Assembly: GCF_000757865.1 (NCBI RefSeq)
Contig: NZ_CP007754.1
Span: 1,590,001-1,622,000, forward strand
Direction of reading: 5' to 3'
Length of the DNA: 32,000 nt
Origin: Prochlorococcus sp. MIT 0801
GTDB taxonomy: Bacteria; Cyanobacteriota; Cyanobacteriia; PCC-6307; Cyanobiaceae
Both the position numbers and the translations under genes were made by a program. Under the pieces are notes generated by a model. It saw only the letters and a list, made by a program, of their open reading frames with translations, made no database searches and was not told the DNA's origin. Below are positions 2,425-25,468 of this stretch, in pieces. Positions within the stretch are counted from its first letter, which is position 1. Every line of letters begins with the position of its first letter.

Positions 2425-3654
<1,230 letters not shown>

Positions 3655-3749
3655 CTAGTAATATTTAGAAGCCTGACGGTACCTCTTTGAATAGGGGCGG
3701 GTCAAAACTTAAACCGCTCGGGCTTCCTGCCCGACTTCGACACTGCCTT

Positions 3750-4220
3750 TTGTCTAATCAAACCGTTTCAGAATTGAAGGTTCTTACAGCGAAATCAGCG
3801 ACTAATTATGGCTTTGATGTAACTGATTTTAAGATGTTAACTCATCTAAACCCCTTATCAATTCAGCTAAATATCCGACACAAAAATCCTGACAAGAAAG
3901 TCTCTATTGATGACTGTTCTATGCTTAGTCAACATATTGATGAAGCTATCCAAGGTTCTTCAATAATTGATCAACCTTTTAATCTTGAAATCAGCAGCGA
4001 GGGAATTGGTGATTTTTTAACAGATGAAAAAGATTTTAAAACATTCAAAGGTTTTCCTATTGAAGTTACTTATCAGGATTTAAAAAAAATTGAACAACAA
4101 ACAAACGGTTTGCTTCTAAAAAGGACAGATAATCAACTTCATATAAATCAAAAGGGGAAAACTCAACGAATTCCGGTTGAAGACGTTATCCAAGTCCGAC
4201 TCACAACACCCTCCGGTTAA
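3750..4220 (+). CDS. rimP: ribosome maturation factor RimP
   Basis: Lies immediately upstream of nusA, as in the conserved rimP-nusA-infB operon. Size and sequence (..ATNYGFDVTDFKMLTH..LSIQLNIRH..) fit RimP. The ORF is open from TTG 3687, but that 21-codon extension is unusually GC/Arg-rich and hairpin-forming, so TTG 3750 is preferred. The start is uncertain. Confidence 0.8.
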   Translation: MSNQTVSELKVLTAKSATNYGFDVTDFKMLTHLNPLSIQLNIRHKNPDKKVSIDDCSMLSQHIDEAIQGSSIIDQPFNLEISSEGIGDFLTDEKDFKTFKGFPIEVTYQDLKKIEQQTNGLLLKRTDNQLHINQKGKTQRIPVEDVIQVRLTTPSG

Positions 4221-4275
4221 AATCTAGATAGTAATTATCTAACCCAATCATTCTCATCTCTACATCCCATCATCG

Positions 4276-5715
4276 ATGGCTCTTGTTCTACTCCCAGGCT
4301 TAAATAACTTAATTGAAGACATTAGTGAGGAAAAAAAGCTTCCATCACAAGTCGTCGAAGCTGCTTTGAGAGAAGCACTTTTAAAAGGTTATGAACGATA
4401 TCGAAGAACTCTTTATTTAGGTATCAGTGAAGATCCTTTTGAAGAAGATTATTTTAGTAACTTTGATGTTGGATTGGATCTAGAAGAGGAGGGTTACAGA
4501 GTTTTAGCAAGTAAAATAATAGTTGAGGAGGTTGAGAGTGATGATCATCAAATAGCAATTGTTGAGGTTAAGCAAGTTGCTGATGACGCTCAAGTTGGCG
4601 ATACCGTTGTACTAGATGTGACTCCAGAGAAAGAAGATTTTGGAAGAATGGCTGCATCTACAACCAAGCAAGTTTTAGCTCAAAAATTGAGAGATCAGCA
4701 GAGAAGAATGATTCAAGAGGAGTTTGCTGACCTAGAAGATCCAGTTCTAACTGCCAGGGTCATTAGATTTGAAAGGCAGTCAGTTATTATGGCAGTTAGC
4801 TCTGGTTTAGGTAGACCAGAAGTAGAAGCAGAGCTTCCAAGACGAGATCAATTGCCAAATGATAATTATCGAGCAAACGCAACATTTAAAGTATTTCTCA
4901 AAGAAGTTAGTGAAATTCCTAGGAGAGGGCCTCAACTTTTTGTCAGCAGGTCAAACGCCGGATTGGTTGTATATTTATTTGAGAATGAAGTTCCTGAAAT
5001 TCAAGAAGGTTCAGTACGTATTGTTGCTGTTGCTCGTGAAGCAAATCCACCTTCAAGAGCAGTAGGTCCCAGAACAAAAGTAGCTGTTGACAGTATCGAA
5101 AGAGAGGTGGACCCTGTTGGAGCATGCATTGGTGCTAGAGGGGCTCGCATTCAACAAGTGGTAAATGAACTTCGTGGAGAAAAAATAGATGTAATTCGTT
5201 GGTCTTCAGACCCTGTTCAATACATCTGTAACTCATTAAGTCCTGCAAGAGTTGAAGTAGTTAGACTTGTTGATCCTGAAGGTCAGCATGCTCATGTCTT
5301 GGTTCCACCAGATCAACTTAGCCTCGCAATCGGAAGAGAAGGGCAAAATGTAAGACTTGCTGCAAGGCTCACAGGATGGAAAATAGATATCAAAAATTCA
5401 CAAGAATATGATCAAGCCACTGAAGATTCCGAGGTTGCAGAATTAATTTCTCAAAGAGAAGAAGAAGAATCTTTACAGAGAGAAGCTGAGAAGAGATTAG
5501 AAGCAGAACAAGCAGCTAGAGCTGAAGAAGATGCACGTTTAAGAGAGCTTTACCCCCTTCCAGAAGACGAAGAAGAGTTTCAAGATGAGCAGTTGTCAGA
5601 CATCGATAATAATGAAACAGAATCTGAATCTGAAGAAAGTGATATTGAAGAAACAATCGAAGAAGGGGTTGCTTCTGAAGATAAAATAATTACAGAAGAG
5701 GAAGGAACCCGGTGA
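4276..5715 (+). CDS. nusA: transcription termination/antitermination factor NusA with an acidic C-terminal tail
   Basis: 479 aa with an N-terminal domain, S1 and KH motifs (GACIGARGARIQ, LAIGREGQNVRLA). The last ~90 aa are a Glu/Asp-rich low-complexity tail. Confidence 0.95.
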   Translation: MALVLLPGLNNLIEDISEEKKLPSQVVEAALREALLKGYERYRRTLYLGISEDPFEEDYFSNFDVGLDLEEEGYRVLASKIIVEEVESDDHQIAIVEVKQVADDAQVGDTVVLDVTPEKEDFGRMAASTTKQVLAQKLRDQQRRMIQEEFADLEDPVLTARVIRFERQSVIMAVSSGLGRPEVEAELPRRDQLPNDNYRANATFKVFLKEVSEIPRRGPQLFVSRSNAGLVVYLFENEVPEIQEGSVRIVAVAREANPPSRAVGPRTKVAVDSIEREVDPVGACIGARGARIQQVVNELRGEKIDVIRWSSDPVQYICNSLSPARVEVVRLVDPEGQHAHVLVPPDQLSLAIGREGQNVRLAARLTGWKIDIKNSQEYDQATEDSEVAELISQREEEESLQREAEKRLEAEQAARAEEDARLRELYPLPEDEEEFQDEQLSDIDNNETESESEESDIEETIEEGVASEDKIITEEEGTR

Positions 5716-9924: not shown

Positions 9925-9957
9925 AAATAAATTCAAAGATGATAACTTTATTCTAGT

Positions 9958-10029
9958 GCCGGTGTAGCTCAGGGGTAGAGCAACTGATTCGTAACCAGTA
10001 GGTCGGTGGTTCAATTCCACTCATCGGCA
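9958..10029 (+). tRNA. tRNA-Thr (anticodon CGU)
   Basis: Hand-folded cloverleaf. The acceptor stem GCCGGTG/CATCGGC has one G-T pair. D arm GCTC-AGGGGTA-GAGC. Anticodon loop TT-CGT-AA. T arm GGTGG-TTCAATT-CCACT. Discriminator A. CCA is not encoded. Confidence 0.9.
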
Positions 10030-10279
10030 TATAGTTATTAAAGGGCTTTAGAAGGAATTTGCTTCAGAGAAGGTGACCTTAATTAAAGTTTTTATTAAAA
10101 TTTTTCTTCTTTTATAAAAACTTATAGAAGACTAAGATCCTTTCTCAAAAATCAACTGTGTCCAATGATTCTAGTAAAAGCGTCTAGTTATTCTGTTCAT
10201 AACGAAAGTCATCTCGATATGTTAGGGTCTTAGCGCTGTAAATGTATGTCATCGGTTTTTACCCTTACAAATAAAGGTT

Positions 10280-11026
10280 ATGACTTCTACTGCTCCTAAT
10301 GAGAATGTTAAGGATAATTTAAAAGATAAAATTTCTTGCAAATTAGTCTCAGAAATAATTCGTGAACGTATAAAAGCCAATGGAGCTAGATTCCATGCAA
10401 ATGATAATATTTCTGATTTCATTCAGCCTGGAGAACTAGAAACTCTTGAGAGAGAAGTTGCAACCAGAGTTAGAGATTTGCTGAAAACTTTATTGATTGA
10501 TGTTGATAATGACCACAACACTCAAGAAACTGCAGAACGAGTTTCCAGAATGTATCTAAATGAAGTATTTAAAGGCAGATATCACCCTCAACCTAAGGTT
10601 ACTAATTTTCCTAACGATAGAAATTTAGATGAGATCTATACACTTGGACCAATCACTGTTCGATCAGCATGTTCTCATCACTTTGTTCCAATTCTTGGAG
10701 ATTGCTGGATAGGAATAAAACCTGGAGAAAAAGTTATTGGAATATCGAAGTTTGCAAGAGTAGCTGATTGGGTCTTTTCTAGGCCACATATTCAAGAAGA
10801 AGCTGTCATGATTCTTGCTGATGAAATAGAGAGATTATGTGAACCCAAAGGTCTTGCAATCCTTGTTAAAGCACAACATTATTGTATGAAATGGCGAGGA
10901 GTCAAAGAGCCTGAAACCAGCATGATCAACTCAATCGTTAGGGGTGATTTTCGCCATGATGCAAGTTTGAAGCAGGAGTTCTTTGAACTTGTTAAGCAAC
11001 AATCCAATTTCGGTAAAAATTACTAA
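10280..11026 (+). CDS. folE: GTP cyclohydrolase I (FolE type IA, zinc-dependent type)
   Basis: 248 aa with QETAERVSRMY, the Zn-ligand motif CSHHFVP and the downstream HYCMKWRGV Cys. Confidence 0.93.
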   Translation: MTSTAPNENVKDNLKDKISCKLVSEIIRERIKANGARFHANDNISDFIQPGELETLEREVATRVRDLLKTLLIDVDNDHNTQETAERVSRMYLNEVFKGRYHPQPKVTNFPNDRNLDEIYTLGPITVRSACSHHFVPILGDCWIGIKPGEKVIGISKFARVADWVFSRPHIQEEAVMILADEIERLCEPKGLAILVKAQHYCMKWRGVKEPETSMINSIVRGDFRHDASLKQEFFELVKQQSNFGKNY

Positions 11027-11284
11027 ATCAAGTGGCATTTTGCGTGGTTACTTCAACTTTTGAATAAATCTCTAATAGCGAAAAAAGTGTTCTAATAACA
11101 AGGGAGGATAAGTAAGCAAAATTGCTTTAATAGCTATCAACTCAGACAGTTACATTATCAACTGTATGTCTAATCAATTATTGATGAAATGATCTATCTT
11201 TAACATAATCATTGTGCCCAACCGGAGGAGCAAAATATAAGGTAATCCTACTAAGACTTCAGCTTGAATGTTTTAACATGCAAA

Positions 11285-11305
11285 TGAAAATGGAAATCAT
11301 TTTCA
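11285..11305. promoter_or_regulatory. candidate Zur (Fur-family) operator upstream of the G3E-like/phosphoesterase operon
   Basis: Perfect 8-5-8 inverted repeat TGAAAATG-GAAAT-CATTTTCA, 41 nt upstream of ATG 11347 and just upstream of a TATATT -10-like hexamer (11316-11321). The stretch 11282-11303 matches 19458-19479 in the znuC/znuA intergenic region at 18/22 positions. Confidence 0.5.
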
Positions 11306-11346
11306 AAATGGATGTATATTCTTTTACGTTATTCCATATCTTTTGA

Positions 11347-12123
11347 ATGCGTCAGGTCTGGTTAATTTCAGGTCCTCCAGGTTGTGGTAAAACCAGTTGG
11401 ATCCTTGATAGATTAAAAAAACATAATAGTTCTTGTGGTTTTCTTCGCCTTTCAGGATTCTCAGAGAACTCTTTGGAACAGGCAAACTCTAATGAGATTG
11501 ATTATGTATTTCTTAAAGATCAAATACCACAGCTAATAGATTTATCTAAATCCTCTGATCAACTCTGTACTGATCAAGATGGTTTGTTGTTATTCATTGA
11601 GCTTCCACAGTTTTATCTTCCTAAGGAATCTGGATTGGCTGGCATTGATCGACGTGTTATTAACCAGCTTGAGAATTTAAAACTTATACCTGATAAATAT
11701 CTCCATTTTGGCCGTGACAATGAATTGCCAATTGTTGACACATTAAACTTTGAAAAGATCGAATCCTTAAGTATCAACCTCAATGAAACTGTTTGGGATC
11801 CGCCAAGCCTAAATACTTTTTGGTTTGAATTAGTTAATGGTGCATATGGAGATGTATATCGAGCAAAAGCCCTGATGAATATCATTGATGGACGATTTAT
11901 GTTGTTCAACTGGATTGTTAGTCGAAATGGTTCGCAGTTTTTGCAACTAAATAATTTTGCGCCACCCAAAGGGAGACCTCAGCGAATATCGCAACTAATT
12001 ATTCAAGGAAGAAATCTTGATTTTGTAAGCATTAAATCTACTGTCAATCTTTGTCTTGTAAATGATGCTGTATTGCAGTTCCATCAAGCTTCTCTTGGCA
12101 ATCAACAATTAGCAGCAACTTAA
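11347..12123 (+). CDS. degenerate G3E/COG0523-like P-loop protein (Walker A present, no CxCC or NKxD)
   Basis: 258 aa. N-terminal GPPGCGKTSW Walker A, a FIELP segment at the Walker-B position, and a C-terminal part resembling a CobW_C domain (..FWFELVNGAYGDVYRAKALMNI..ISQLIIQGRNLD). The family assignment rests on motif inspection only. Confidence 0.65.
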   Translation: MRQVWLISGPPGCGKTSWILDRLKKHNSSCGFLRLSGFSENSLEQANSNEIDYVFLKDQIPQLIDLSKSSDQLCTDQDGLLLFIELPQFYLPKESGLAGIDRRVINQLENLKLIPDKYLHFGRDNELPIVDTLNFEKIESLSINLNETVWDPPSLNTFWFELVNGAYGDVYRAKALMNIIDGRFMLFNWIVSRNGSQFLQLNNFAPPKGRPQRISQLIIQGRNLDFVSIKSTVNLCLVNDAVLQFHQASLGNQQLAAT

Positions 12124-12135
12124 TAAAGTTTACTT

Positions 12136-12951
12136 ATGAAACAAGCAGTTATCTCATGTTTACATGCCAACCTCCCTGCTGTAGAGGCTGTACTTAACGA
12201 CATCGATCGTCAAGGAATTGATATCATTACTTGCCTTGGTGACTTGGTGGGCTATGGACCGCATCCAAATGAGGTTGTGGAGTTAATAAGAGAGCGTAAT
12301 ATTGCCACCTGTCAGGGTTGTTGGGACGAAGATGTTGTCGATGGACTTGATGCCTGTGATTGTAGCTATCCCTCCCAACTTGCCGAAAGACGTGGACACG
12401 AAGCTCACAAATGGACTACTACAAAGTTGTCGAATAAAAATAAGAGTTTTCTAGCTAGCCTTCCAAAATCTATACGTAGAAATAAATTGCTTTTTGTTCA
12501 TGGCAGCCCTAATAGTCAACATGAATATCTCCTTCCAGATATGGATGCATTTGCAGCGTTAGAAAGAGTAGAAATGGCTGGAGCTGAAACTTTATTTTGT
12601 GGTCATACACACTTACCTTATCTTCGTGAATTAGGAAATGGAACAATTCGAGTAAGTCTTAAAAACAGTCCTAAGAATAAATTAGAAAATAAAGAAATGA
12701 ATTTACCTATGAGAAGGATAGTCAATGCAGGGTCTGTTGGCGAACCGCGTCATGGAGGGATTAATGCTACCTATGTGATTTACGACGATGAAACAAACAA
12801 TATTGATATAAAAGAAGTTTCATATGATATTAATCGAACCTGCAAAGCTATCATAGAAGTTGGGCTACCTCATATATTTGCATGGCGCCTGAGTCATGGC
12901 TTTGAATTTGCAGAACTGGCCGAGGATGCTAGTCATGTGTGTGAAAGATGA
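12136..12951 (+). CDS. metallophosphoesterase (YfcE/MJ0936-like) with Cys substitutions at canonical metal-ligand positions
   Basis: 271 aa. Motif II GDLVGYG, motif IV FVHGSP and motif V CGHTHLPY are intact. Motif I reads SCLHAN (Asp replaced by Cys). Motif III reads GCWDED instead of GNHD/GNCD. There is an extra DACDC pair. Confidence 0.85.
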   Translation: MKQAVISCLHANLPAVEAVLNDIDRQGIDIITCLGDLVGYGPHPNEVVELIRERNIATCQGCWDEDVVDGLDACDCSYPSQLAERRGHEAHKWTTTKLSNKNKSFLASLPKSIRRNKLLFVHGSPNSQHEYLLPDMDAFAALERVEMAGAETLFCGHTHLPYLRELGNGTIRVSLKNSPKNKLENKEMNLPMRRIVNAGSVGEPRHGGINATYVIYDDETNNIDIKEVSYDINRTCKAIIEVGLPHIFAWRLSHGFEFAELAEDASHVCER

Positions 12952-13661
12952 TTGAACGCTGGGCATTAATAAGTGGTTTAAAGGGCGACCTTGAGACTTA
13001 TGCACTTATTCAAAAGAATTTAAAAAAAATTCAAGGAGATATAAAATTATTTGTTTTGGGTGACATGGTAGGAGCAGCAAGAAATTGCGATGCATTGATC
13101 GACCGTCTAATCAATCCTCTCCCTGGCGATTTCAAGCCCCAATGTATTTATGGTTGGTGGGAAGATCAGCTACTTGCAGAACGGGGTTATCGTGGAGAAC
13201 AAAAGGCAGATGCTTTAAGACTAAATGAAGGAGAAAGCGTAGTTAAAGCTCTTGTAAATGCGGTTGATCCGTATTATTTAAATTGGTTGGCTTCTCTTGA
13301 ATTTGGATTTGTCGAATTGGATTGCGGATTGATTCATGGAAGTTCTAAAGACGTTGGAGATTCTCTAACAAAGGACACACCTCCTCTTATCCTTTTGGAC
13401 CGTCTTACTCGACTTGGTGTGAATAGATTGTTTACAGCAAGAAGTGCTCAACAATTTCATCTTGAATTGACTGACGCTGTAGTTAACTCATACGTCAAAG
13501 ATTTAGGTGGTAATCGTAAGCAAGAACAGAGAATGCCTAAGAGAGGAGTTATAGGAATTGGTGCTGGCGCTTATTACACTCTTTATGATGTTGGAAGTGA
13601 TAAAACTCACTTTCTTAATGTTCTTGATCAGCCTAAATCAACTGCAAGGGGATTTGGGTAA
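12948..13661 (+). CDS. metallophosphoesterase-like paralogue, apparently catalytically degenerate
   Basis: 237 aa. Its start overlaps the upstream stop (ATGA). It keeps GDMVG (motif II) and LIHGSS (motif IV). Motif I is ISGLKGD (no Asp or His), motif III is YGWWED, and no GHxH motif V is present. Confidence 0.7.
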   Translation: MIERWALISGLKGDLETYALIQKNLKKIQGDIKLFVLGDMVGAARNCDALIDRLINPLPGDFKPQCIYGWWEDQLLAERGYRGEQKADALRLNEGESVVKALVNAVDPYYLNWLASLEFGFVELDCGLIHGSSKDVGDSLTKDTPPLILLDRLTRLGVNRLFTARSAQQFHLELTDAVVNSYVKDLGGNRKQEQRMPKRGVIGIGAGAYYTLYDVGSDKTHFLNVLDQPKSTARGFG

Positions 13662-14319: not shown

Positions 14320-15518
14320 TCAGAACTCGAAAGTGGTTTTCACCAAAGCTCCATTAACGTCCTCTTTACCATCTTGTTCAATAACAAAAATAGCTGGAGT
14401 AACTGTGACGCTATCGTTCACCGTAAAATCATAAAAAGCTTCCCAAGCCAAAGGATCATCATAACCACTGTCATCTCTATGAGTTTCGGCTGTTCCAATA
14501 CCAAATCCAAACTTATTTCCCTCAATAAACGCATCATTCCATAGGAAGCCAACAGACCATGTATTGCCATCCTCCACCTTATTCATTGCAGTATCAGGAT
14601 TATCCTCGTTTTCAGGATTCTTCCAACCAATACCAGCACTCAAGCTGTAGTCGTCTCCGAATTGATAGCTACCACTAATTCCATAAGACGAGTAATCATT
14701 CACATCAGGAGAATTATCAGTATTCCCGTTATCCGCTTGGGTATAGGCCGCTGCAAGAGTAAATTTATCATCAACCCATGCCAACTGAGTCGTTATGTGA
14801 TCTTTACCTTCATCAGTTAAAAAACCAATCGAAGAATTTGATGCGTCTTCTGAAACGAAGAGAGCAGAAGCAACTAATTTGTCATGAGACCAAGTAATAC
14901 CAGCACCCGCTCCCATTTTTTTGGAATAAGTATCATTGGCCCCTGCCTGGTTTAGTACAAATAAAACTCCATCGCTTGGGTAATCACTTGGCCACACACC
15001 AAGTAAATCATCTTGACGAAGCTTGGGACCAAAAGTTACTTGAATATCATCTCCCAAGGAAACTGATAATAAGCCTTGTGAAGTTCCAACGAATCACTAC
15101 TACTAAAAGCAGTATCTAATCTTGCCTCACCCATCATTCCGAAGGGTTCCATCATGCCAAAATTACCTATCCGAACAGCAGTTTTAAGCATGTCTTGACC
15201 TGTGAAACTGGTCATAAACATTAACTTTGTATCGTAGTGAAAAACTGTCCCATCCTTGTCCTCAGAAGTAGACATTCCACCCATTCCACCCATTCCACCC
15301 ATTCCACCCATTCCAGAATCACTTACGCCATCTATTCCACCCAAAACAAAAGTTGTTTTTCCCATAAACATAGTTGAAGGATATGAATCTCCCATATTCA
15401 TGTGACCACCATGGTGATCATGATGACCTTTGTTCTTTTCACTTCCTGCTTCAACAGCCATTGGAGCCATGAAACCTAAGGCAGTAGGGATTGAAAGTAA
15501 TTGAGCAAAGAGCCTCAT
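14320..15518 (-). pseudogene. outer-membrane porin (cyanobacterial OprB-like beta-barrel, no SLH domain seen) split by a 1-nt frameshift
   Basis: ORFs 15036-15518 and 14320-15057 are the N- and C-terminal parts of one protein. The N part has a signal peptide, HHDHHGGH and (GMG)n. The C part is Gly/Asp/aromatic-rich and ends ..TTFEF, a terminal Phe typical of OM barrels. Adding one T to the minus-strand cagtttccTTggg (about 15056-15060) would give ..YYQFPLGDDIQVTFGPK... Confidence 0.75.
15273..15315 (-). repeat. 9-nt tandem repeat (CATTCCACC, ~4.8 copies) encoding (GMG)n in the porin
   Basis: Direct reading: cattccacc occurs 4 times followed by cattcca. It is in frame and encodes GMGGMGGMGGMGGM on the minus strand. 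Confidence 0.9.
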
Positions 15519-15528
15519 AGGTCTAAAG

Positions 15529-15560
15529 AACTAGCAAAACTAGCAAAACTAGCAAAACTA
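15529..15560. repeat. 9-nt tandem repeat (AACTAGCAA, ~3.5 copies) immediately upstream of the porin start codon
   Basis: aactagcaa occurs 3 times followed by aacta, beginning 11 nt from the porin ATG (15518, minus strand). It therefore lies in the porin 5' leader/RBS region. Confidence 0.9.
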
Positions 15561-15658
15561 TTCATGTGTCATGAAGATAACTTCTCAGGCTTGTTAAAGG
15601 CATTAAATATGTGTCTTTAGATACAAAGAATTTTTTTTAGTCTTTGCCAGAAAAAAGC

Positions 15659-15681
15659 TGAAAATCAATTTCCATCAAAAT
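15659..15681. promoter_or_regulatory. weak, half-site-level match to the Zur-box-like motif in the porin / WMPC-lipoprotein divergent region
   Basis: TGAAAATCAATTTCCATCAAAAT shares TGAAAAT with both stronger boxes. Its reverse complement (..ATGGAAATTGATTTTCA) resembles 11290-11305 (ATGGAAATCATTTTCA) with a 1-nt insertion. It is followed by TATAGT. Confidence 0.25.
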
Positions 15682-15818
15682 ATAGTCTCACAAAGAAGAA
15701 ATAAAGGATAGTTGGATGATTTAATTACTTTTCTGTTCTAATTTTTCTGAAATACTCAATGACAAAGTTCTAGGCTTGATTAAGCTAAAGACTAGATTTA
15801 CTAGCTAAAACTAGATAA

Positions 15819-16076
15819 ATGGACAAACTTAAGCCTATTCTCTCCACAATTATTCTTTCTTTATCATTTTCACTAATAGGATGTTCAGATAATAGTCAAA
15901 CACAAGGTACTCCCTCTCTTTTTGAGACAAAAATAGAAGCCGAAAAAGCAGCCAAGGATTTCAATTGCACTGGAGCTCATAAAATGGGTGACAAATGGAT
16001 GCCTTGTAAAAGTCATTCTGCTCATGAAGATAAAGAGAATAACAACTCAAGAAATGAACATCACCATCATCACTAG
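15819..16076 (+). CDS. small lipoprotein with a Cys/His/Met 'WMPC' mini-domain (DUF3721-like, from memory) and a C-terminal His5 tail
   Basis: 85 aa. Lipobox SLIGC. Motif FNCTGAHKMGDKWMPCKSH. Ends NEHHHHH. Confidence 0.75.
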   Translation: MDKLKPILSTIILSLSFSLIGCSDNSQTQGTPSLFETKIEAEKAAKDFNCTGAHKMGDKWMPCKSHSAHEDKENNNSRNEHHHHH

Positions 16077-16091
16077 ATTTTCGAACAATAA

Positions 16092-16535
16092 ATGACAACC
16101 AACAATAGTACTAATCAAAAAGAGATCGAAGGTCCTTCGCATTGTGGAAGCAAACCAAAAAAAATTGCATTTGGCATAGCACCACTTGGATTCATTTCCA
16201 TTGGAATTGTTCCCATGGGGATTGTTAGCATTGGAATTGTTCCCATGGGTGTCGTTTCTATTGGCGCTGTAGCCATGGGAGTATTGAATGCATCAATAAT
16301 CGGTATGGGAATATTTTCTGCCGGAATAACAACCATGGGTCTAAAGGTATGGAGTCCAGAAAACAATGCTCTTCAGGAGTCAATCAATCGTTCTAATTCT
16401 TCGTCTTCAAAAAATATATATGCATATCCAACCAAAGCTCAGGCAGAGATCGAAGCCAAAAAGATCGGATGCAATGGTGTCCATAAGATGGGTAAATTAT
16501 GGATGCCTTGTGCAATCCATATAAACCCTAACTAA
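16092..16535 (+). CDS. membrane protein with six tandem Gly/Met decapeptide repeats plus a C-terminal WMPC (DUF3721-like) mini-domain
   Basis: 147 aa. Residues ~27-86 read FGIAPLGFIS IGIVPMGIVS IGIVPMGVVS IGAVAMGVLN ASIIGMGIFS AGITTMGLKV. The C-terminus IGCNGVHKMGKLWMPCAIH is paralogous to the upstream gene. It lies 15 nt downstream of the previous stop. Confidence 0.7.
   Translation: MTTNNSTNQKEIEGPSHCGSKPKKIAFGIAPLGFISIGIVPMGIVSIGIVPMGVVSIGAVAMGVLNASIIGMGIFSAGITTMGLKVWSPENNALQESINRSNSSSSKNIYAYPTKAQAEIEAKKIGCNGVHKMGKLWMPCAIHINPN
16199..16249 (+). repeat. exact 21-nt direct repeat with a 30-nt period inside the decapeptide-repeat region
   Basis: cattggaattgttcccatggg occurs at 16199-16219 and again at 16229-16249. 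Confidence 0.9.
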
Positions 16536-17446: not shown

Positions 17447-18232
17447 CTATCTATTGTTTGGTAGCAAAATCAATGAAATTACACAAAGAACACTAATAAG
17501 AGGGCCAGGAGGCAAATTCATAACCATAGCAAGCGAAAAACCAATGATCGATAAAGCTAATCCAAATATGGAAGATCGAACCATAGCAACCCTCAGAGAT
17601 CTAGCTTTCTGTAAACCCAACAAAGTTGGTGTTGAGAGTAACGCAATCACAAGGATGACCCCAACTGCTGACATTGAGCTCACAATGACAAGTGCAGTGG
17701 TAAATCCCAGAGCTAAATTTAAAAAAGACACATTAACGCCACTTGAAGCAGCTCCTTCTGGGTCTAAACCAATATGAACAAGCTTGTCGTAACCAAAAAG
17801 CATTAAGCAAATGAATGCCGAGAACGCAATCAAAGTTCTTAACAAATCGCTCAAATTTGAAGTTAATAAATCTCCAAACAAAACAGCCTCCAAATCAATC
17901 CTGATTCCAAGTAGAGGTATAAGCAAAACACCAAGTCCCATCGAACCAGCAAGAATTGTATTCATTACAGCTTCATAATTTTGATTTTTTTTATTTGTCA
18001 AACTCTCTGCTGCAATAGCTCCCACTAATCCGCTTAAGACACCTCCAATAGATGGGTCAATCCCAAGCGCCATAGCCAAGGCAAGTCCTGGCAAAACACA
18101 GTGTGAAATTAAATTTACTTGAAGAAGCCTTTTATGAGTTATCAATACAGTTCCCATGGCAGGGCAAAGCACTCCTGAAAAAGAAGTTATCAGAAGAGGA
18201 ATGATCCACCAATTTGTATTGATAAAAGACAT
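17447..18232 (-). CDS. znuB: zinc/manganese ABC transporter permease (ABC-3 family)
   Basis: 261 aa, polytopic, with ZnuB/ABC-3-type sequence (..VLITHKRLL..ISHCVLPGLALA..). It sits in a cluster with zur, znuC and znuA. Confidence 0.9.
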   Translation of the reverse strand: MSFINTNWWIIPLLITSFSGVLCPAMGTVLITHKRLLQVNLISHCVLPGLALAMALGIDPSIGGVLSGLVGAIAAESLTNKKNQNYEAVMNTILAGSMGLGVLLIPLLGIRIDLEAVLFGDLLTSNLSDLLRTLIAFSAFICLMLFGYDKLVHIGLDPEGAASSGVNVSFLNLALGFTTALVIVSSMSAVGVILVIALLSTPTLLGLQKARSLRVAMVRSSIFGLALSIIGFSLAMVMNLPPGPLISVLCVISLILLPNNR

Positions 18233-18285
18233 TAAGCAAATGATTTAGTATGGTCAGTTAGACAGATCAAATTAAGATCTTGCTA

Positions 18286-18687
18286 ATGAATACAAGCAAG
18301 CCTGACATAACTAAGAGACAGCAACAACTTCTCAATGAACTCAAGAGATGTCCTGATGAGTTGAGTGGACAAGAACTGCATAGAAAATTTCATAATGGTC
18401 AAAAGGCAATGGGTCTGACGACTGTATATAGGAACTTGCAAGTGTTAGTAAAGCAAGGTTTGATCCGCTCGAGACACCTCCCTAACGGCGAGGTCCTTTA
18501 TGCCCCAGTTGAAAGAGATATTCATCATTTAACTTGCGTAAGCTGCGGGGAAACTACTCGATTGCAGGGATGCCCCGTCAAAACAATGCACATACCCCAG
18601 AAAGCCTCTAAAAAATTTGAGCTGTTGTTTCATACTCTTGAATACTTTGGCCTCTGCCAAAATTGTTCCCAAGGATTGAATGCTTGA
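18286..18687 (+). CDS. zur: Fur-family metalloregulator, Zur-like
   Basis: Winged-helix region (GLTTVYRNLQVLVKQGLI), then HHLTCVSCG and LCQNCSQ CxxC pairs typical of Fur/Zur. Divergent from znuB. The track ORF begins at TTG 18280; ATG 18286 is preferred. Confidence 0.88.
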   Translation: MNTSKPDITKRQQQLLNELKRCPDELSGQELHRKFHNGQKAMGLTTVYRNLQVLVKQGLIRSRHLPNGEVLYAPVERDIHHLTCVSCGETTRLQGCPVKTMHIPQKASKKFELLFHTLEYFGLCQNCSQGLNA

Positions 18688-18714: not shown

Positions 18715-19410
18715 CTATATTTTCCATCTCAGATAATTAATTGAACTAAGTTTTTCCTGCACCTCTTCAGGGTTACCAGAAGCCAAAATAATCTTATCTA
18801 GAACAACAACCTTGTCATAAGCATTTAATGATGTTCCCCAATCGTGACTACTGACGAACACTGTCAATCCAGAATCAGCTAACTGACGGATGATTAATAG
18901 GAAATCTTCCTTTGCGGGGGGATCAAATGCGGCACAAGGTTCATCAAGTAGAAATATTTCGGCAGGATTCATCAAGGTTTTTGCGAGTAATGCTCTTTGT
19001 TGCTGACCACCGGATAAAGAATCAAGTCGCCTTTTTGCTAAATGAGATATTCCAACACGTTGAAGAGCCGCTTCTAATTCACAACAAGTTGATTTCGAAT
19101 GATTGACTCGACCTAAAGAAACTAATCCTTCAACAGTAATTGGAAAATTCCAATTAAGCTTCCCCCTCTGAGGCATTAAAGCCACTTGAGATCGATTATT
19201 TCTAAGTGGTTTTCCGTCAACAGTAATTTCTCCTTGATCCGGCTTACTACTTCCTTGCAGCAAGCTTAATAATGTGGACTTACCAGCACCATTGGGACCA
19301 ACAAGAGCAGTCAAAGTACCTTGCTCAAGCTTAAGAGAAACCTTGCTTAAAGCAGGTTTGATTTTACTCGAATAGGAATATGTCACATTTTCAGCAATCA
19401 AACTAGACAT
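18715..19410 (-). CDS. znuC: zinc ABC transporter ATP-binding protein
   Basis: Walker A GPNGAGKST, signature LSGGQQQR, Walker B FLLDEP. ATG at 19410; the track adds one TTG codon at 19413. Confidence 0.92.
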   Translation of the reverse strand: MSSLIAENVTYSYSSKIKPALSKVSLKLEQGTLTALVGPNGAGKSTLLSLLQGSSKPDQGEITVDGKPLRNNRSQVALMPQRGKLNWNFPITVEGLVSLGRVNHSKSTCCELEAALQRVGISHLAKRRLDSLSGGQQQRALLAKTLMNPAEIFLLDEPCAAFDPPAKEDFLLIIRQLADSGLTVFVSSHDWGTSLNAYDKVVVLDKIILASGNPEEVQEKLSSINYLRWKI

Positions 19411-19460
19411 CAATTAGAGGATTTGCTGACAAGAAACATAATATACTTGCCAAGACCAAA

Positions 19461-19479
19461 TGAAAATGATTATCGTTTT
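19461..19479. promoter_or_regulatory. probable Zur box in the znuC/znuA divergent promoter region
   Basis: TGAAAATGATTATCGTTTT contains an 8-1-8 near-palindrome, AAAATGAT-T-ATCGTTTT, with 7/8 arm complementarity. It lies 21 nt upstream of the znuA ATG and 48 nt upstream of the znuC start. Fur-family operators are typically AT-rich palindromes at this location. Confidence 0.6.
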
Positions 19480-19499
19480 AGATACGCTAAATATTCTTG

Positions 19500-21017
19500 A
19501 TGTCGAATTTTTCTAATCAGTCCAAAAAGGCTAAACCCATAATCAATAAAACATTTCTCAAAAGTTCTCTTGTTGCTGGAGCATTTTTATTTTCTGGAAT
19601 TAATCAAAGTGCACAGGCAAATTCAAAACCAATTGTTGCCGTAGAGCCATTAGTCTGCGATGTCGTTTCTGCGATTGCACCACCTTCAACACCTGTAACC
19701 TGCTTAATTGATAGAAAACAAGATGTTCATGATGTCAAAATCACTCCAAGGCAAGCTCAAACACTAAAGAGTGCAAACCAAGTATTTACTCTTGGTTCAG
19801 AGATGACCCCTGCAATGAAAAAATGGTTAGATAATCCTTTAACTGTTGTTGTCGGCGTAAGTGCAATAGAAATAGACGATCATCATGACGATCACGATGA
19901 TCATTCAGCTTCTAAGGATGATGACCACGATGATCATTCAGCTGCTAAACATGACGATCATGATGACCATGATGATCATAGCGATAGCCACGGAGAAGGA
20001 GATTTTGAATGGGCTGGTGTTTTTGATCTTTCAGCAGGAACATACAAATGGTCTTTTGCCAAAGTTGATGGAGACTATGCTGATCCTGCAATGAAAATGG
20101 TTATTCTCAACTCTGGTGATATTGAAGCATCAGAAGAGCTTGCTAAAGAATTATTAGGTTCTAAGAATTCAGAAACCAAACGCAATAATGACAAACTTGT
20201 TGCGCAGGAAAAAGCTTATTTTCTTTCATTCAATGAAAAGAGAGATACCACAACATTTACTGTAGAAATCAAAAAAGCTGGTAAATATGCATTCTTTACT
20301 GAGCATATGCCTTTTGAATTTGAAGCCGACGAACATTTCTTTAAGGATATTTCAGGCGACGATGTTGAACCGATTGCTCAAGTCCCAGATGAAGGCGATC
20401 ACCATCATCACCATGACCATGGTGGGCTAGATCCTCATATCTGGCATGACCCTCATAACATCATCAAGATGGGAAATGTCATTTCTAAAAATATCAATAA
20501 GAAAATTTCCTTCTTTGACAGAGAAACAAAAAAAGTTTTAAAAGAGAGGACTGAAGCCGTTAATTCTATTTTGGAAGATCTCGATTTATGGACTCAAAAA
20601 CAAGTTGCCACAATTCCTACTGATCGAAGGACAATCGTTTCTAAGCACAAAGCGATGGAATATTACGGAGATGCATTTGGCTTGAAGACTTTGAGTCTAT
20701 TAGATTTCCTTGGTGATTCTTCCAGCCTTAGACCAGAGACTATTTCAACGGTAATAGCTGAGTTGAAAGAAGAAAACGTGAACGTATTATTCGCTGAGCA
20801 AAAGCCTCCTTCCAAGCTATTGAAAAATCTGAGCAGACAAACTTCCACCCCTATTGCAAGAAATCAGATCTTTGTTGATGGTCTAATGCTAGAGGGGAAT
20901 ACTGTTTCAGTAGCAGTACACAACACATGTACAATTGTGGATTCACTTGGTGGAGAATGTGACGAGAAAGAGGGTGATGAACTTGAGAGTAAATGGAATG
21001 ATTTAACTAACCCTTAA
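19500..21017 (+). CDS. znuA: zinc ABC transporter substrate-binding protein with a split His/Asp-rich loop and a ~105-aa inserted domain
   Basis: About 505 aa, versus the ~300-340 aa I recall as typical for ZnuA. It has a signal sequence, cluster A-I SBP motifs (DVHDV, GLDPHIWHDP, KHKAMEYYG) and His/Asp tracts DDHHDDHDDH...HDDHDDHDDH and DHHHHHDH. These tracts flank an extra domain starting at FEWAGVF. Confidence 0.9.
   Translation: MSNFSNQSKKAKPIINKTFLKSSLVAGAFLFSGINQSAQANSKPIVAVEPLVCDVVSAIAPPSTPVTCLIDRKQDVHDVKITPRQAQTLKSANQVFTLGSEMTPAMKKWLDNPLTVVVGVSAIEIDDHHDDHDDHSASKDDDHDDHSAAKHDDHDDHDDHSDSHGEGDFEWAGVFDLSAGTYKWSFAKVDGDYADPAMKMVILNSGDIEASEELAKELLGSKNSETKRNNDKLVAQEKAYFLSFNEKRDTTTFTVEIKKAGKYAFFTEHMPFEFEADEHFFKDISGDDVEPIAQVPDEGDHHHHHDHGGLDPHIWHDPHNIIKMGNVISKNINKKISFFDRETKKVLKERTEAVNSILEDLDLWTQKQVATIPTDRRTIVSKHKAMEYYGDAFGLKTLSLLDFLGDSSSLRPETISTVIAELKEENVNVLFAEQKPPSKLLKNLSRQTSTPIARNQIFVDGLMLEGNTVSVAVHNTCTIVDSLGGECDEKEGDELESKWNDLTNP
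19875..19991 (+). repeat. repetitive coding DNA for the His/Asp-rich loop (18-nt exact repeat with a 33-nt period)
   Basis: cacgatgatcattcagct occurs at 19893-19910 and at 19926-19943. The surrounding sequence is gat/cat-rich and encodes (D/H)n. Confidence 0.85.
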
Positions 21018-21074: not shown

Positions 21075-21392
21075 ATGTTTCCAACTAAAGGGTTTAACGC
21101 CTATAGACAACACTGGGAAGATCAGGCAAGTTTTATGGATAAAGCGCCATGGGATAGAGATAAAATCTTAAAACTTACTATCTCAACTGACTTCGATGAC
21201 AATTTAAAAGAACTTCAATTTTCAAATCATTCGCTTAAGAAAGAAAATGGAAAAAATACAGTAAGATTAAAAGTTCCATACAATTATTTTGAGCTAGATG
21301 ATTTTGAATCAAAGTCCCTAGATTTATTGGGAATACAAGAGAATTGGCTAACTGATATTTCTTTTGACAACTCTCATTGTTCACATTATTAG
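21075..21392 (+). CDS. hypothetical protein (105 aa) between znuA and the COG0523 gene
   Basis: ORF only, with no recognised domain or signal peptide. It ends ..NSHCSHY. It fits the gap between neighbouring genes on the same strand. Confidence 0.4.
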   Translation: MFPTKGFNAYRQHWEDQASFMDKAPWDRDKILKLTISTDFDDNLKELQFSNHSLKKENGKNTVRLKVPYNYFELDDFESKSLDLLGIQENWLTDISFDNSHCSHY

Positions 21393-21400
21393 TTAAAGAA

Positions 21401-22783
21401 ATGAGCATTAAGCAAAAAGTACCGGTTACCATATTGACTGGTTTCCTAGGATCTGGAAAAACTACTCTACTTAATCGAATCTTGAGCGAAGAACACGGTA
21501 AAAAAATAGCTGTTATTGAAAATGAATATGGTGAAGTTGGTATTGATCAAGGATTAGTCATCAATGCTGATGAAGAGGTCTTCGAGATGTCGAATGGTTG
21601 CATTTGCTGCACCGTTCGGGGTGATCTTATTCGTGTACTTGGAAACCTCATGAAGAGGCGAGACAAATTTGACTATGTATTAGTTGAAACTACTGGCCTT
21701 GCTGATCCTGGTCCTGTCGCTCAGACATTCTTTATGGACGATGAAATCCGTGAGGAGTTTTCACTTGATGGAATAGTCACACTTGTTGATGCAGCCCATA
21801 TAGAGCAACAACTTGGTCGAAGTGATGAGAGTTCGGAGCAAGTTGCCTTTGCTGACGTCCTTGTCCTAAATAAAACCGATCTAGTTTCAGATGAATCACT
21901 CGACAACTTAGAATCACGGCTACGCGATATGAATCGTATGGCTCGTGTCATACGCAGTAAACAAGCAGACGTCTCAATTGATACTGTGCTAAATCTAAGT
22001 GCTTTTGATTTAGATCAAGTACTTCAGCGTCGTCCAACTTTTCTTGAACCAGAATACCCATTTGAGTGGACAGGTGTTTTTTCACTTGAAAAAGGTCGCT
22101 ATGAACTTACGCTCGAAGAAGGTCCAGACCCCACAATGTCTCTCGTCCAGTTATTAGATCAAGGTAAAGACGAGACAGCTCTTAACACAGGTGCTGAATC
22201 ATGCGTGAGACTCTACGCAGAACAAGAACAACTTATAAATCCAGGGGATTTGGTTCCAATCGGCAAGCATGTGAGCCTTCAACTTCAATCCGAAGGGACT
22301 AAGTCCTTCTTCATAGATGTTGATAAGGCAAGGGATATAGGTCTATTCACGCAACATACAGCTGAAGAATTTAATATGAAATTAACGAAAGTAAATACTC
22401 CTTCTACAGACCATATAGATAATGATCAGAACATCTCTACAATTTCTCCAATAGCTGAGAGGGTTTGGGTAGCTGAACACGAACATGATGACGAAGTAGG
22501 TTCATTCGCTATCGAGCGAGACGGTAACGTAGATCCAGAAAAACTCAATAGATGGCTAAGTCGACTTTTGTCTGAGAAAGGTGTGGATATATTTCGCACT
22601 AAAGGTTTCATTAGTTATGCGGGTGAATCTAAGCGAATAGTTTTTCAAGGAGTACACATGCTCTTCACAGCACAACCTGATAAAGAATGGGGCAATGAAC
22701 CTCGCCGTAACCAACTCGTCTTTATCGGTAGAAATCTTGATGAAGTAGAAATGAGAAAGGAGTTTGATAAATGTCTGGTATAG
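21401..22783 (+). CDS. COG0523 (CobW/YjiA/ZigA-type) G3E metallochaperone GTPase with an inserted ~105-aa domain
   Basis: GFLGSGKTTLLN (Walker A), ENEYGE, the GCICCTV metal motif, VETTGLADP, LNKTD, and a C-terminal CobW_C-like region (..RTKGFISYAG..IVFQGVH..). Between the G domain and the C-domain lies an insert starting at FEWTGVF, followed by AEHEHDDE. ATG 21401 is preferred over the track start at 21377. Confidence 0.9.
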   Translation: MSIKQKVPVTILTGFLGSGKTTLLNRILSEEHGKKIAVIENEYGEVGIDQGLVINADEEVFEMSNGCICCTVRGDLIRVLGNLMKRRDKFDYVLVETTGLADPGPVAQTFFMDDEIREEFSLDGIVTLVDAAHIEQQLGRSDESSEQVAFADVLVLNKTDLVSDESLDNLESRLRDMNRMARVIRSKQADVSIDTVLNLSAFDLDQVLQRRPTFLEPEYPFEWTGVFSLEKGRYELTLEEGPDPTMSLVQLLDQGKDETALNTGAESCVRLYAEQEQLINPGDLVPIGKHVSLQLQSEGTKSFFIDVDKARDIGLFTQHTAEEFNMKLTKVNTPSTDHIDNDQNISTISPIAERVWVAEHEHDDEVGSFAIERDGNVDPEKLNRWLSRLLSEKGVDIFRTKGFISYAGESKRIVFQGVHMLFTAQPDKEWGNEPRRNQLVFIGRNLDEVEMRKEFDKCLV

Positions 22784-23844
22784 AAGCATTTAGTCCAAAG
22801 GGAATGCTTCATGAAAGTTGGTCTGCTCAAGCTAGCGACTACGCGATTGTCTGCGGCTGGGCACTACAAGGTAAAACTTTTTTAGTAGGTGACGTCGCTG
22901 GTGGGCTTTATGCATTTGAGGGAATATCTGGAAAGCTCATTTGGCAAATAAAAGACATACATAAAGGCGGCTTACTCGCAATGTCTATACATCCAAATGG
23001 AAAGACTTTTGCAACTGCTGGCCAAGATGGACATGTAAATATATGGGAAAGCCAAGAGGGTACGTCAACTAAAACTATAGAACTTGGGAAAGGTTGGGTT
23101 GAGCACATCAAGTGGTCCCCAGACGGAAAATTTTTAGCTGTAGTTTTTACTAAATACGTCTATGTTTTTGATGATCAAGGTCAAGAACATTGGCGATCAG
23201 AGGAGCATCCCAGCACTGTCAGCGCGATTGCTTGGTCTAATTCAAATGAATTAGCAACAGCATGCTATGGCCAAGTAACTTTTTTTGATGTCGTAAACGA
23301 CAAGATCAATCAAAAGTTGGAATGGAGAGGCTCACTAGTATCTATGGTGCTTAGTCCAGATGGTGACATAGTGGCATGCGGCAGCCAAGATAATTCTGTT
23401 CATTTCTGGCGTCGTTCAACTGATCAAGATTCAGAGATGACAGGCTACCCAGGTAAACCAAGCCACCTAGCTTTTGATCAAACCGGCACAGTCCTTGCTA
23501 CTGGGGGTAGTGATCGAGTGACGGTTTGGAGTTTTCAAGGCGATGGTCCTGAGGGCACTGTACCAGGAGAGTTAATGCTTCATACGGAACCCATTTCATG
23601 CCTTTCTTTCTCACATAGCGGGATGCTTTTAGCTTCTGGCGCGAGAGATGGTTCAGTTTTTTCTTGGTTTCTCCAAAAAGATGGTCAGGGTGATCCAGTT
23701 GGTGGTGCATTTGCAGGTGACCTTGTAAGCCAAATCGCTTGGCATCCTGATGACACTGCCTTGGCTGCAATAAATGCAAACGGAGGAATTACGGTTTGGG
23801 AGTTTAAGGTTCGGACGAAAACCTCACCTCAAGGAATCGGATAA
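22771..23844 (+). CDS. WD40-repeat (beta-propeller) protein translationally coupled to the COG0523 gene
   Basis: 357 aa with repeated WD-type units (DGHVNIWE, DNSVHFWR, DRVTVWSF, DGSVFSWF, GGITVWEF). Its ATG lies 13 nt inside the 3' end of the COG0523 ORF. Confidence 0.85.
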   Translation: MSGIEAFSPKGMLHESWSAQASDYAIVCGWALQGKTFLVGDVAGGLYAFEGISGKLIWQIKDIHKGGLLAMSIHPNGKTFATAGQDGHVNIWESQEGTSTKTIELGKGWVEHIKWSPDGKFLAVVFTKYVYVFDDQGQEHWRSEEHPSTVSAIAWSNSNELATACYGQVTFFDVVNDKINQKLEWRGSLVSMVLSPDGDIVACGSQDNSVHFWRRSTDQDSEMTGYPGKPSHLAFDQTGTVLATGGSDRVTVWSFQGDGPEGTVPGELMLHTEPISCLSFSHSGMLLASGARDGSVFSWFLQKDGQGDPVGGAFAGDLVSQIAWHPDDTALAAINANGGITVWEFKVRTKTSPQGIG

Positions 23845-25197: not shown

Positions 25198-25468
25198 TTA
25201 ATAGAAAAATATTCTTACACAGTTATTTTTCAAGATATAGACAAGATTGTTCCATCTCTCCATAGAGTCCATAAGCAATAATTTTTACCCAATCAGACTT
25301 TATGCTTGAAAAGACAAAAAGTTTCTGATCTAAATTGATAATAATTTTTGAAGAAACTTCAACAGATTGAGAATGAATTGTGTATTATCTACAAACGTTC
25401 AGCTCTATCCGAGTCGCAGTTAGATTCAAGCCATGGAACGGGGACTTGAACAATGACAATTTTTTCTA

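Follow-up and report, generated by a model that had tools for sequence, protein, structure and literature searches.

The zinc-responsive repressor Zur is known in cyanobacteria from several lines of work, which include the RegPrecise motif (NTNANAATGATNATCATTNTNAN), the 7-1-7 box of Anabaena, the box predicted between the divergent znuC and znuA genes (Haas 2009; Barnett 2012), and SynZur of Synechococcus WH8102. The known picocyanobacterial Zur regulon is tiny: it comprises znuABC, a COG0523-WD40 gene pair and, in some strains, bmtA, and COG0523-type proteins are a classic class of Zur target. We describe here an operon of three genes, coding for a P-loop protein, a phosphoesterase with cysteine-substituted metal ligands and a degenerate phosphoesterase paralogue, in a 32,000-nucleotide stretch of Prochlorococcus sp. 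MIT 0801 (contig NZ_CP007754.1; hereafter the window, with all positions counted from its first letter). The operon is preceded by a predicted Zur operator and very probably belongs to the zinc-starvation response, since the site is conserved across marine and freshwater picocyanobacteria. The likeness to the known systems lies in the palindrome, in its predicted placement over a promoter, and in the co-occurrence of the operon with zur, znuABC and COG0523-WD40 genes within 12 kb. The operon itself is absent from the regulons of Haas 2009, Barnett 2012 and Mikhaylina 2018/2022, and from the RegPrecise set for WH8102 as quoted in Mikhaylina 2022. A partial precedent exists in Synechococcus PCC 7002, where a truncated orthologue of the first gene, G0131, lies in a Zur-responsive cluster (Ludwig 2015, PMC4628125).

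Two sites in the window are at issue. As a preliminary description of this DNA had observed, site 1 (11282-11303, AAATGAAAATGGAAATCATTTT), upstream of the operon, and site 2 (19458-19479, AAATGAAAATGATTATCGTTTT), between znuC and znuA, share 18 of 22 bases, or 19 of 23 if the preceding c at 11281 and 19457 is counted. Both fit the pattern AAAATGrw-w-ATCrTTTT, and positions 11285-11305 form a perfect 8-5-8 inverted repeat (TGAAAATG-GAAAT-CATTTTCA). That pattern is circular when used as a statistic, and we replaced it by a simulation with a fixed query (see below) and by an independent yardstick, the RegPrecise cyanobacterial Zur consensus TNANAATGATNATCATTNTNA, which has 16 specified positions and is quoted in Mikhaylina 2022 (PMC9337993). 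Its top two matches in the window, at 14/16 each, are 11285-11305 (box 1) and 19461-19481 (box 2). In the register of the consensus, 8 of 10 positions of box 1 are paired around a central base, an architecture of the Fur type. Box 2 occupies the place where a Zur box is expected, and the same position was predicted by Haas 2009 in P. marinus CCMP1375 and CCMP1986. The weaker consensus matches in the window fall within coding DNA, one of them in folE at 10396 and others in the stretch of znuA that encodes the His/Asp repeats; chance probably accounts for them.

The decisive support for box 1 is its conservation across other genomes. A profile search of species-representative genomes with the P-loop family recovered at least 78 loci from Prochlorococcus, marine Synechococcus and Cyanobium, of which about 5-20 kb each was scanned for the best consensus match; the locus counts given here are among the matches listed. 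The proteins encoded in the window are ~98% identical to those of Prochlorococcus sp. MIT 0916 (L001). The best or tied-best match of the locus falls at most 200 nucleotides upstream of the P-loop gene in 53 of the 57 listed loci that lack an upstream COG0523 gene, where random placement would yield ~1 of 57. Box positions relative to the P-loop start are -56 to -72 for Prochlorococcus and -36 to -162 for Synechococcus. In an anchored alignment of 54 distinct upstream regions, high information is confined to the AATGAT.ATCATT core and, within Prochlorococcus, a -10-like element (TGTAWATT-like) 8-9 nucleotides downstream of the box. The upstream G+C content spans 17-68%, and the gene on that side varies in identity and orientation between lineages while the box stays, which indicates that the box travels with the operon. 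The order of P-loop gene, phosphoesterase gene and 237-residue gene is intact in nearly all loci long enough to show it. In the Cyanobium-type loci, a true COG0523 gene comes first, its stop codon overlapping the P-loop gene (ATGA; 20/20 listed), and it is this operon-heading COG0523 gene that is preceded, ~45 nucleotides 5' of its start, by the perfect palindrome GAGAACCGTTCTC (likewise 20/20 listed). Phylogenetic footprinting, which had been put forward as a check in the preliminary description, accordingly finds the motif conserved upstream of orthologous operons in Prochlorococcus, marine Synechococcus, Cyanobium, Picosynechococcus and Nostocales, and the flanks not conserved. We predict on these grounds that box 1 is a real Zur operator of the cyanobacterial type. 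Two contigs of metagenome-assembled genomes deposited as Blastopirellula and Sphingobacterium thalpophilum (L040 and L046) also carry the picocyanobacterial cassette, with 54-57% identity and cyanobacterial neighbors; mis-binning of contigs from Synechococcus or Cyanobium is the probable explanation.

The same comparison bears on the notion that the repeat is a chance match in AT-rich DNA, or an RNA hairpin that, for example, ends transcripts reading through from folE. Of 300 first-order Markov copies of the 32-kb window, 2.3% contain some stretch that agrees with the znuC/znuA site, taken as the fixed query, at 18 or more of its 22 positions (P ~0.02 per window), and the repeat does fold as RNA (-11.6 kcal/mol, z = -2.9). 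Yet what orthologues preserve are the bases of the half-sites (AATGAT/ATCATT), not pairing through compensatory changes, and they do not retain the perfect 8-5-8 stem. Moreover, the stem is not G+C-rich, it lacks a T-run, and no terminator is called at the site; finally, folE lies upstream only in the MIT 0916 lineage, whereas the box accompanies the P-loop gene everywhere. Both versions of this explanation are effectively refuted.

The position of box 1 relative to the candidate promoter bears on the sign of the regulation. The box ends 41 nucleotides before the ATG at 11347, and a TATATT hexamer, as the preliminary description had it, stands at 11315-11320, beginning 9 nucleotides after the box end. 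A TGTATATT/TGTAAATT/TGATATTT element is found 8-9 nucleotides 3' of the box in most of the Prochlorococcus orthologues shown, and the spacing between the two is kept in the aligned upstream regions of this genus. Box 1 would thus lie directly before a candidate -10 element and over the -35 region, the geometry expected for repression. Activation by Zur has a precedent in marine Synechococcus, at bmtA of WH8102 (PMC9337993), and could in principle apply to this operon. Against this stand the predicted placement of the box over the promoter, which matches the repression geometry described for znuA/znuC, the behavior of the orthologous PCC 7002 unit, which rises rather than falls in a zur mutant, and the COG0523-like gene content, typical of genes that are derepressed in zinc starvation. 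We hold activation to be highly improbable here.

A further line of evidence concerns the metal. In ~1 Mb of loci, the other matches to the GAGAACCGTTCTC 13-mer are nearly all near zur, znuC or COG0523/WD40 genes, one example lying between a divergent COG0523 gene and zur; the motif is therefore tied to zinc and not to iron. In one locus (L018) the operon directly adjoins zur-znuC-znuA, and in another (L078) it comes after znuA-znuC-zur-znuB. These observations have to be set against the possibility that a different Fur-family paralogue, such as the iron regulator Fur or a PerR-like protein, binds the box, so that the operon would answer to iron or oxidative stress. Fur-family operators are in general AT-rich palindromes of hexamer repeats, iron genes of Prochlorococcus MED4 have Zur-like boxes in their vicinity (Barnett 2012), and on NCBIfam models the regulator of the window scores higher as PerR and Fur than as enterobacterial Zur, all of these scores being below the cutoff. 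Nevertheless, box 1 has its 18/22 identity with the znuC/znuA site of the same genome, boxes of this type are in all lineages almost confined to the neighborhood of zur, znu and COG0523 genes, the operon is linked to zur-znuABC or headed by a COG0523 gene in several of them, and the orthologous PCC 7002 promoter responds to zur deletion and to the zinc chelator TPEN. Control by another paralogue consequently appears very unlikely. As a separate observation, two Cyanobium-type loci (L043 and L077) have a GAGAAT/CGGTTCTC-type palindrome at about +7940 to +7983, counted from the start of the P-loop gene, in the region that separates zur from a divergent COG0523-WD40 unit; this suggests that in such genomes Zur may regulate its own gene together with the COG0523-WD40 unit.

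Beyond the picocyanobacteria, a tblastn search of plasmids recovered the three-gene cassette from Picosynechococcus PCC 73109, PCC 7117 and NIES-970, from Trichormus variabilis ATCC 29413, and from a Dolichospermum metagenome-assembled genome. The encoded proteins are 57-59% (phosphoesterase), ~27% (P-loop protein) and 34% (third protein; E 3e-47, to a Picosynechococcus "metallophosphatase") identical to those of the window, and hhalign relates the P-loop family of the window to the intact PCC 73109 copy with a probability of 99.8%. The cassette adjoins hemB-II and folE-II in Picosynechococcus, has hemB, thrS, DUF1636, COG0523 and zinc ABC binding protein genes as neighbors in Trichormus, and is part of a unidirectional thrS-COG0523-folE-Ploop-MPE-metallophosphatase array (MPE, metallophosphoesterase) in Dolichospermum. 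Among these neighbors in Picosynechococcus and Nostocales are the known Zur targets hemB2, folE2 and thrS2. In Picosynechococcus and Trichormus, consensus matches of 14-15/16 stand ahead of the cassette or its operon, and Dolichospermum has such a match ahead of the thrS operon that encloses the cassette; the T. variabilis box (AAAATGATTATCATTAC) ends a few nucleotides 5' of the ATG, and that of Picosynechococcus is a perfect TGATAAT-T-ATTATCA palindrome. Elsewhere on Trichormus variabilis plasmid A (L080, 12084-12110), a 15/16 match to the Zur consensus lies 5' of a gene for a mersacidin/lichenicidin-type lantibiotic precursor, near LanM and transporter genes; AT-rich DNA may have produced it by chance, or Zur may have an unexpected target here.

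The PCC 7002 cluster connects these predictions to experiment. According to Ludwig 2015 (PMC4628125), loss of zur in Synechococcus PCC 7002 derepresses hemB-II, folE-II, G0131 and G0132, and TPEN induces all four sharply. The cluster lies on plasmid pAQ7, and G0131 is described in that work as having "similarities to GTPases". We assign G0131 to the truncated P-loop gene by its position in the cluster, the sequence record carrying only new-style locus tags. The cassette is intact in PCC 73109 and PCC 7117, unlike in PCC 7002 (L081, pAQ7, 2925-4696), where it is degraded: the P-loop gene codes for 165 residues, with 99% identity to the first 147 residues of the PCC 73109 copy, the phosphoesterase gene is replaced by an unrelated 235-residue open reading frame, and the paralogue is reduced to 111 residues. 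The two best consensus matches of the PCC 7002 locus lie in the G0132-G0131 intergenic region (15/16) and upstream of hemB-II. They coincide with the responsive units, and therefore the orthologous promoter is experimentally Zur-controlled in one cyanobacterium; by the same token, the consensus used here predicts real Zur targets. The likeness to the window is that of a P-loop orthologue under a Zur-box promoter. The differences are the degradation of the cassette, the P-loop identity of only ~27%, and the fact that the three-gene unit was not recognized by Ludwig 2015.

Taken together, the independent consensus match and the conservation upstream of orthologous operons argue for the suggestion, made in the preliminary description, that the operon shares a regulon with zinc uptake; the regulation itself we infer from them. 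We consider it highly likely that Zn-Zur binds 11285-11305 and represses the operon 11347-13661, and that zinc scarcity relieves this repression. When zinc is sufficient, zinc-loaded dimers of the Zur encoded at 18280-18687 would occupy the Fur-type palindrome, and, because the box would abut the candidate -10 element and cover the -35 region, this binding is proposed to block RNA polymerase. When zinc is scarce, Zur would shed its sensory zinc and come off the DNA, and the operon would then be transcribed alongside znuABC and the COG0523-WD40 genes.

Several points weigh against this reconstruction. The pairwise similarity of the two sites, taken alone (P ~0.02), is only modestly significant, because of the frequency with which simulated windows reach it. 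The boxes of Fur, Zur and PerR are all AT-rich palindromes, and sequence alone therefore cannot fully exclude another Fur paralogue. In PCC 7002, neither G0129, annotated as "phosphoesterase", nor G0130 was derepressed or induced (PMC4628125); the decay of the cassette in that strain may explain the missing induction of the "phosphoesterase". The chief caveat is that the Zur regulon of Synechococcus WH8102, at eight genes the only experimental one for a marine picocyanobacterium, is without such an operon (PMC9337993), and RegPrecise gives no box for one in WH8102 (set as quoted in the same paper). Genes of this kind are not mentioned in the supplements of Mikhaylina 2022. No WH8102-named protein is among the matches listed in the protein searches, which include ones with marine Synechococcus orthologues, and few of the listed matches carry names.

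As for precedence, the znuC/znuA box was already known (Haas 2009; Barnett 2012). The statement in the preliminary description that the link between Zur and this operon was undescribed stands for Prochlorococcus and marine Synechococcus, for which literature searches, full-text searches included, found none; it does not stand for PCC 7002, given the truncated orthologue G0131. The literature searched likewise yielded no metallophosphoesterase as a Zur target. The identification of box 1 and its operon as a new Zur target, with G0131 as partial precedent, is solidly supported by the comparative sequence evidence. A guess that PMM1027-1029 of strain MED4 represent the operon led only to a table on the yfr5 noncoding RNA and was not used.

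The first protein of the operon is related to the COG0523 metallochaperones (YjiA, YeiR, ZigA, ZagA and Zng1) in ways that are clearer in structure than in sequence. Its Walker A motif, GPPGCGKT, is invariant across the family. The protein of the window has no Pfam match (PF02492 is not detected and CobW_C is below threshold), although 71 of 79 family members match CobW_C (PF07683), with E up to 0.01. An hhalign comparison with the COG0523 protein of the window itself aligns only the Walker A region, with a probability of 22%, and a profile search of PDB sequences returned only uninformative Walker A matches to AAA+ proteins. The metal-binding GCxCC and guanine-specificity NKxD motifs are absent from the sequence and from the conserved columns of the family, in which the only conserved cysteines are C13, within Walker A, and C236. 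In contrast, the AlphaFold2 model of the protein (pLDDT, the predicted local confidence score, of 89) has YjiA structures, including 1nij and 4ixm, as its top three Foldseek matches in the PDB (E 5e-7 to 4e-6, probability 1.0), with TM-scores that are low (~0.3) because the orientation of the domains differs. The label "G3E-like" given in the preliminary description is hence apt at the level of the fold. Judged from the model, the protein appears to be a COG0523 relative by fold that fails the sequence criteria of the family. It has in common with the metallochaperones the two-domain YjiA-like fold, Walker A, a CobW_C-like domain and predicted Zur control, and in Cyanobium its gene is translationally coupled to a true COG0523 gene; it differs from them in lacking PF02492, GCxCC and NKxD and in having only ~258 residues. 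Instead of acting as a GTP-dependent chaperone, it may be an ATPase or serve as a non-catalytic adaptor.

The second protein is placed by Pfam in Metallophos/Metallophos_2, its scores of 71.8 and 38.7 bits exceeding the respective gathering cutoffs of 27 and 21.5, and its closest solved relative is 3rqz (E 5e-27). Metal ligands were mapped from a HMMER alignment to that structure; a single-sequence AlphaFold2 model (pLDDT 35) was not used. Motif I reads C8-L-H10 instead of DxH and motif III reads G61-C62-W63-D64 instead of GNHD, with further invariant cysteines at C59, C74 and C76, whereas motifs II, IV and V are kept and invariant (G35-D36, H122 and G156-H157-T-H159). The residues of this Cys variant are invariant in two sets of orthologues (64 and 31). 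Among 135 related representatives of 50%-identity clusters, 126 and 125 have the canonical residues in motifs I and III, respectively, and only the ~8 nearest show the Cys variant; the only named cluster among these is cyanobacterial (Leptolyngbya PCC 7376, Limnothrix), and the sister group has GNYD plus CxC. Compared with metallophosphoesterases of the YfcE/MJ0936/3rqz type, the protein thus shares the fold family, retains GD, H and GHxH, and has the CxC insertion common to the GNYD subfamily. It differs in the change of Asp to Cys in motif I and of Asn-His to Cys-Trp in motif III, and in being paired with a second gene that lacks two of the motifs.

That second gene codes for a protein of 237 residues without Pfam or NCBIfam matches, which tblastn relates to its neighbor at 21-24% identity. 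DxH is replaced by SGL and GHxH by TARS, GD and one His being retained, and the protein is best described as a degenerate paralogue of the phosphoesterase, predicted to be catalytically degenerate. Both proteins had been called phosphoesterase-like before, rightly so on the Pfam match of the first and the motif kinship of the second. Tandem pairs are also found in other phyla, in ars operons of Bacteroidota such as arsR-ACR3-MPE-MPE in Pedobacter; pairs of the subfamily are therefore linked to metal(loid) stress there. The closest non-cyanobacterial plasmid relatives (~35% identity, GNYD plus CGC) form a tandem pair in an arsR-DUF6428-ACR3 operon of the Pedobacter plasmid pA27BH1 (L082, 2040-5512), and a related gene adjoins ACR3 on a Mucilaginibacter plasmid.

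In terms of function, the operon is most likely a chaperone-plus-client module, judging from its gene content, in which the NTPase would load or exchange the metal of the phosphoesterase pair under zinc limitation. A more specific version, which we regard as tentative and rather doubtful, is that a heterodimeric phosphoesterase, composed of a Cys subunit and a pseudo-enzyme subunit, receives its metal from the reduced COG0523 relative or is remodeled by it, and that the activity of this enzyme links zinc scarcity to nucleotide, pterin or phosphorus metabolism. With no greater confidence, the enzyme would then be a candidate for hydrolyzing nucleotides of the Ap4A-like or ZTP-like kind, or for dephosphorylating dihydroneopterin triphosphate, which FolE produces. 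The last of these is considered because folE adjoins the cassette in three lineages: MIT 0916 and the window, the Dolichospermum plasmid (L083, 5566-6213), and Picosynechococcus with its folE-II (L079, 9664-10302). This adjacency may reflect a functional connection with pterin or folate metabolism.

Table 1. Predicted regulatory sites and genes of the operon and its surroundings in the window
Feature	Position	Strand	Remarks
Zur box 1 (predicted)	11285..11305	.	TGAAAATGGAAATCATTTTCA; putative operator of the P-loop/phosphoesterase operon
Zur box 2 (predicted)	19461..19481	.	TGAAAATGATTATCGTTTTAG; divergent znuC/znuA promoter region
Candidate -10 hexamer TATATT	11315..11320	+	preceded by TG; pattern scan
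258-residue P-loop protein, diverged COG0523-like NTPase	11347..12123	+	Walker A GPPGCGKT; CobW_C-like C-terminal domain
271-residue metallophosphoesterase (Metallophos_2), Cys-substituted metal ligands	12136..12951	+	Pfam; 3rqz alignment
237-residue degenerate phosphoesterase paralogue	12948..13661	+	start overlaps previous stop (ATGA)
tRNA-Thr	9957-10030
folE (GTP cyclohydrolase I)	10280-11026		no box upstream
znuB (ABC-3 permease)	17447..18232	-	Pfam ABC-3
zur, Fur-family regulator	18280..18687	+	Pfam FUR, E 1.1e-16; ATG at 18286 likely start
znuC (ABC ATPase)	18715..19413	-	Pfam ABC_tran
znuA, periplasmic Zn-binding protein, His/Asp-rich insert	19497..21017	+	Pfam ZnuA
Canonical COG0523 GTPase (cobW + CobW_C)	21377..22783	+	Pfam
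WD40 gene	22771-23844		after COG0523 gene

The remainder of the window (G+C ~37%) is summarized with the operon in Table 1. The zur gene lies inside a znuB-zur-znuC-znuA cluster arranged as described for Prochlorococcus. A 105-residue open reading frame separates znuA from the COG0523 gene, which is probably co-transcribed with znuA, and the layout is identical to the znuC <> znuA-X-COG0523-WD40 architecture with a predicted Zur box in P. marinus CCMP1375 (Haas 2009). ZnuA is unusually long (506 residues), with a large insert in which DHHDDHDDH recurs and an HHHHHDH stretch is present; at the DNA level, the repeats give rise to weak, spurious hits of the Zur consensus at 19893-19984. Genes for small, His/Met-rich proteins with a metal-binding look lie between the operon and znuB, at 15036-15518 (-), 15819-16076 (+) and 16092-16535 (+). 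One has a GHHDHHGGH plus GMG repeat run, one ends in HHHHH, and two have HKMG(D/K)(K/L)WMPC; they have no Pfam or NCBIfam match, and there is no convincing Zur box in 15519-15818. A glutamine-II riboswitch aptamer (Rfam RF01704) is found at 25393-25450 (+), at 66.8 bits against a gathering threshold of 33.

The oligotrophic ocean offers hardly any zinc. If the assignment made here is true, the list of cytoplasmic zinc-starvation functions in marine picocyanobacteria, so short at present, would be roughly doubled. All Prochlorococcus lineages sampled have the operon, as do many genomes of Synechococcus and Cyanobium, and it has counterparts in Nostocales and Picosynechococcus. Zinc control of a phosphoesterase-like protein is of interest because zinc-phosphorus co-limitation of marine cyanobacteria is debated. 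The operon is also a tractable candidate for addressing the targets of COG0523-type proteins, which are still to be established for most members of that family. Should the chaperone-client reading be true, the phosphoesterase would be the first defined bacterial client of a COG0523-type protein that is a phosphoesterase, and the module would constitute a core zinc-response function in the most abundant phototroph of the ocean.

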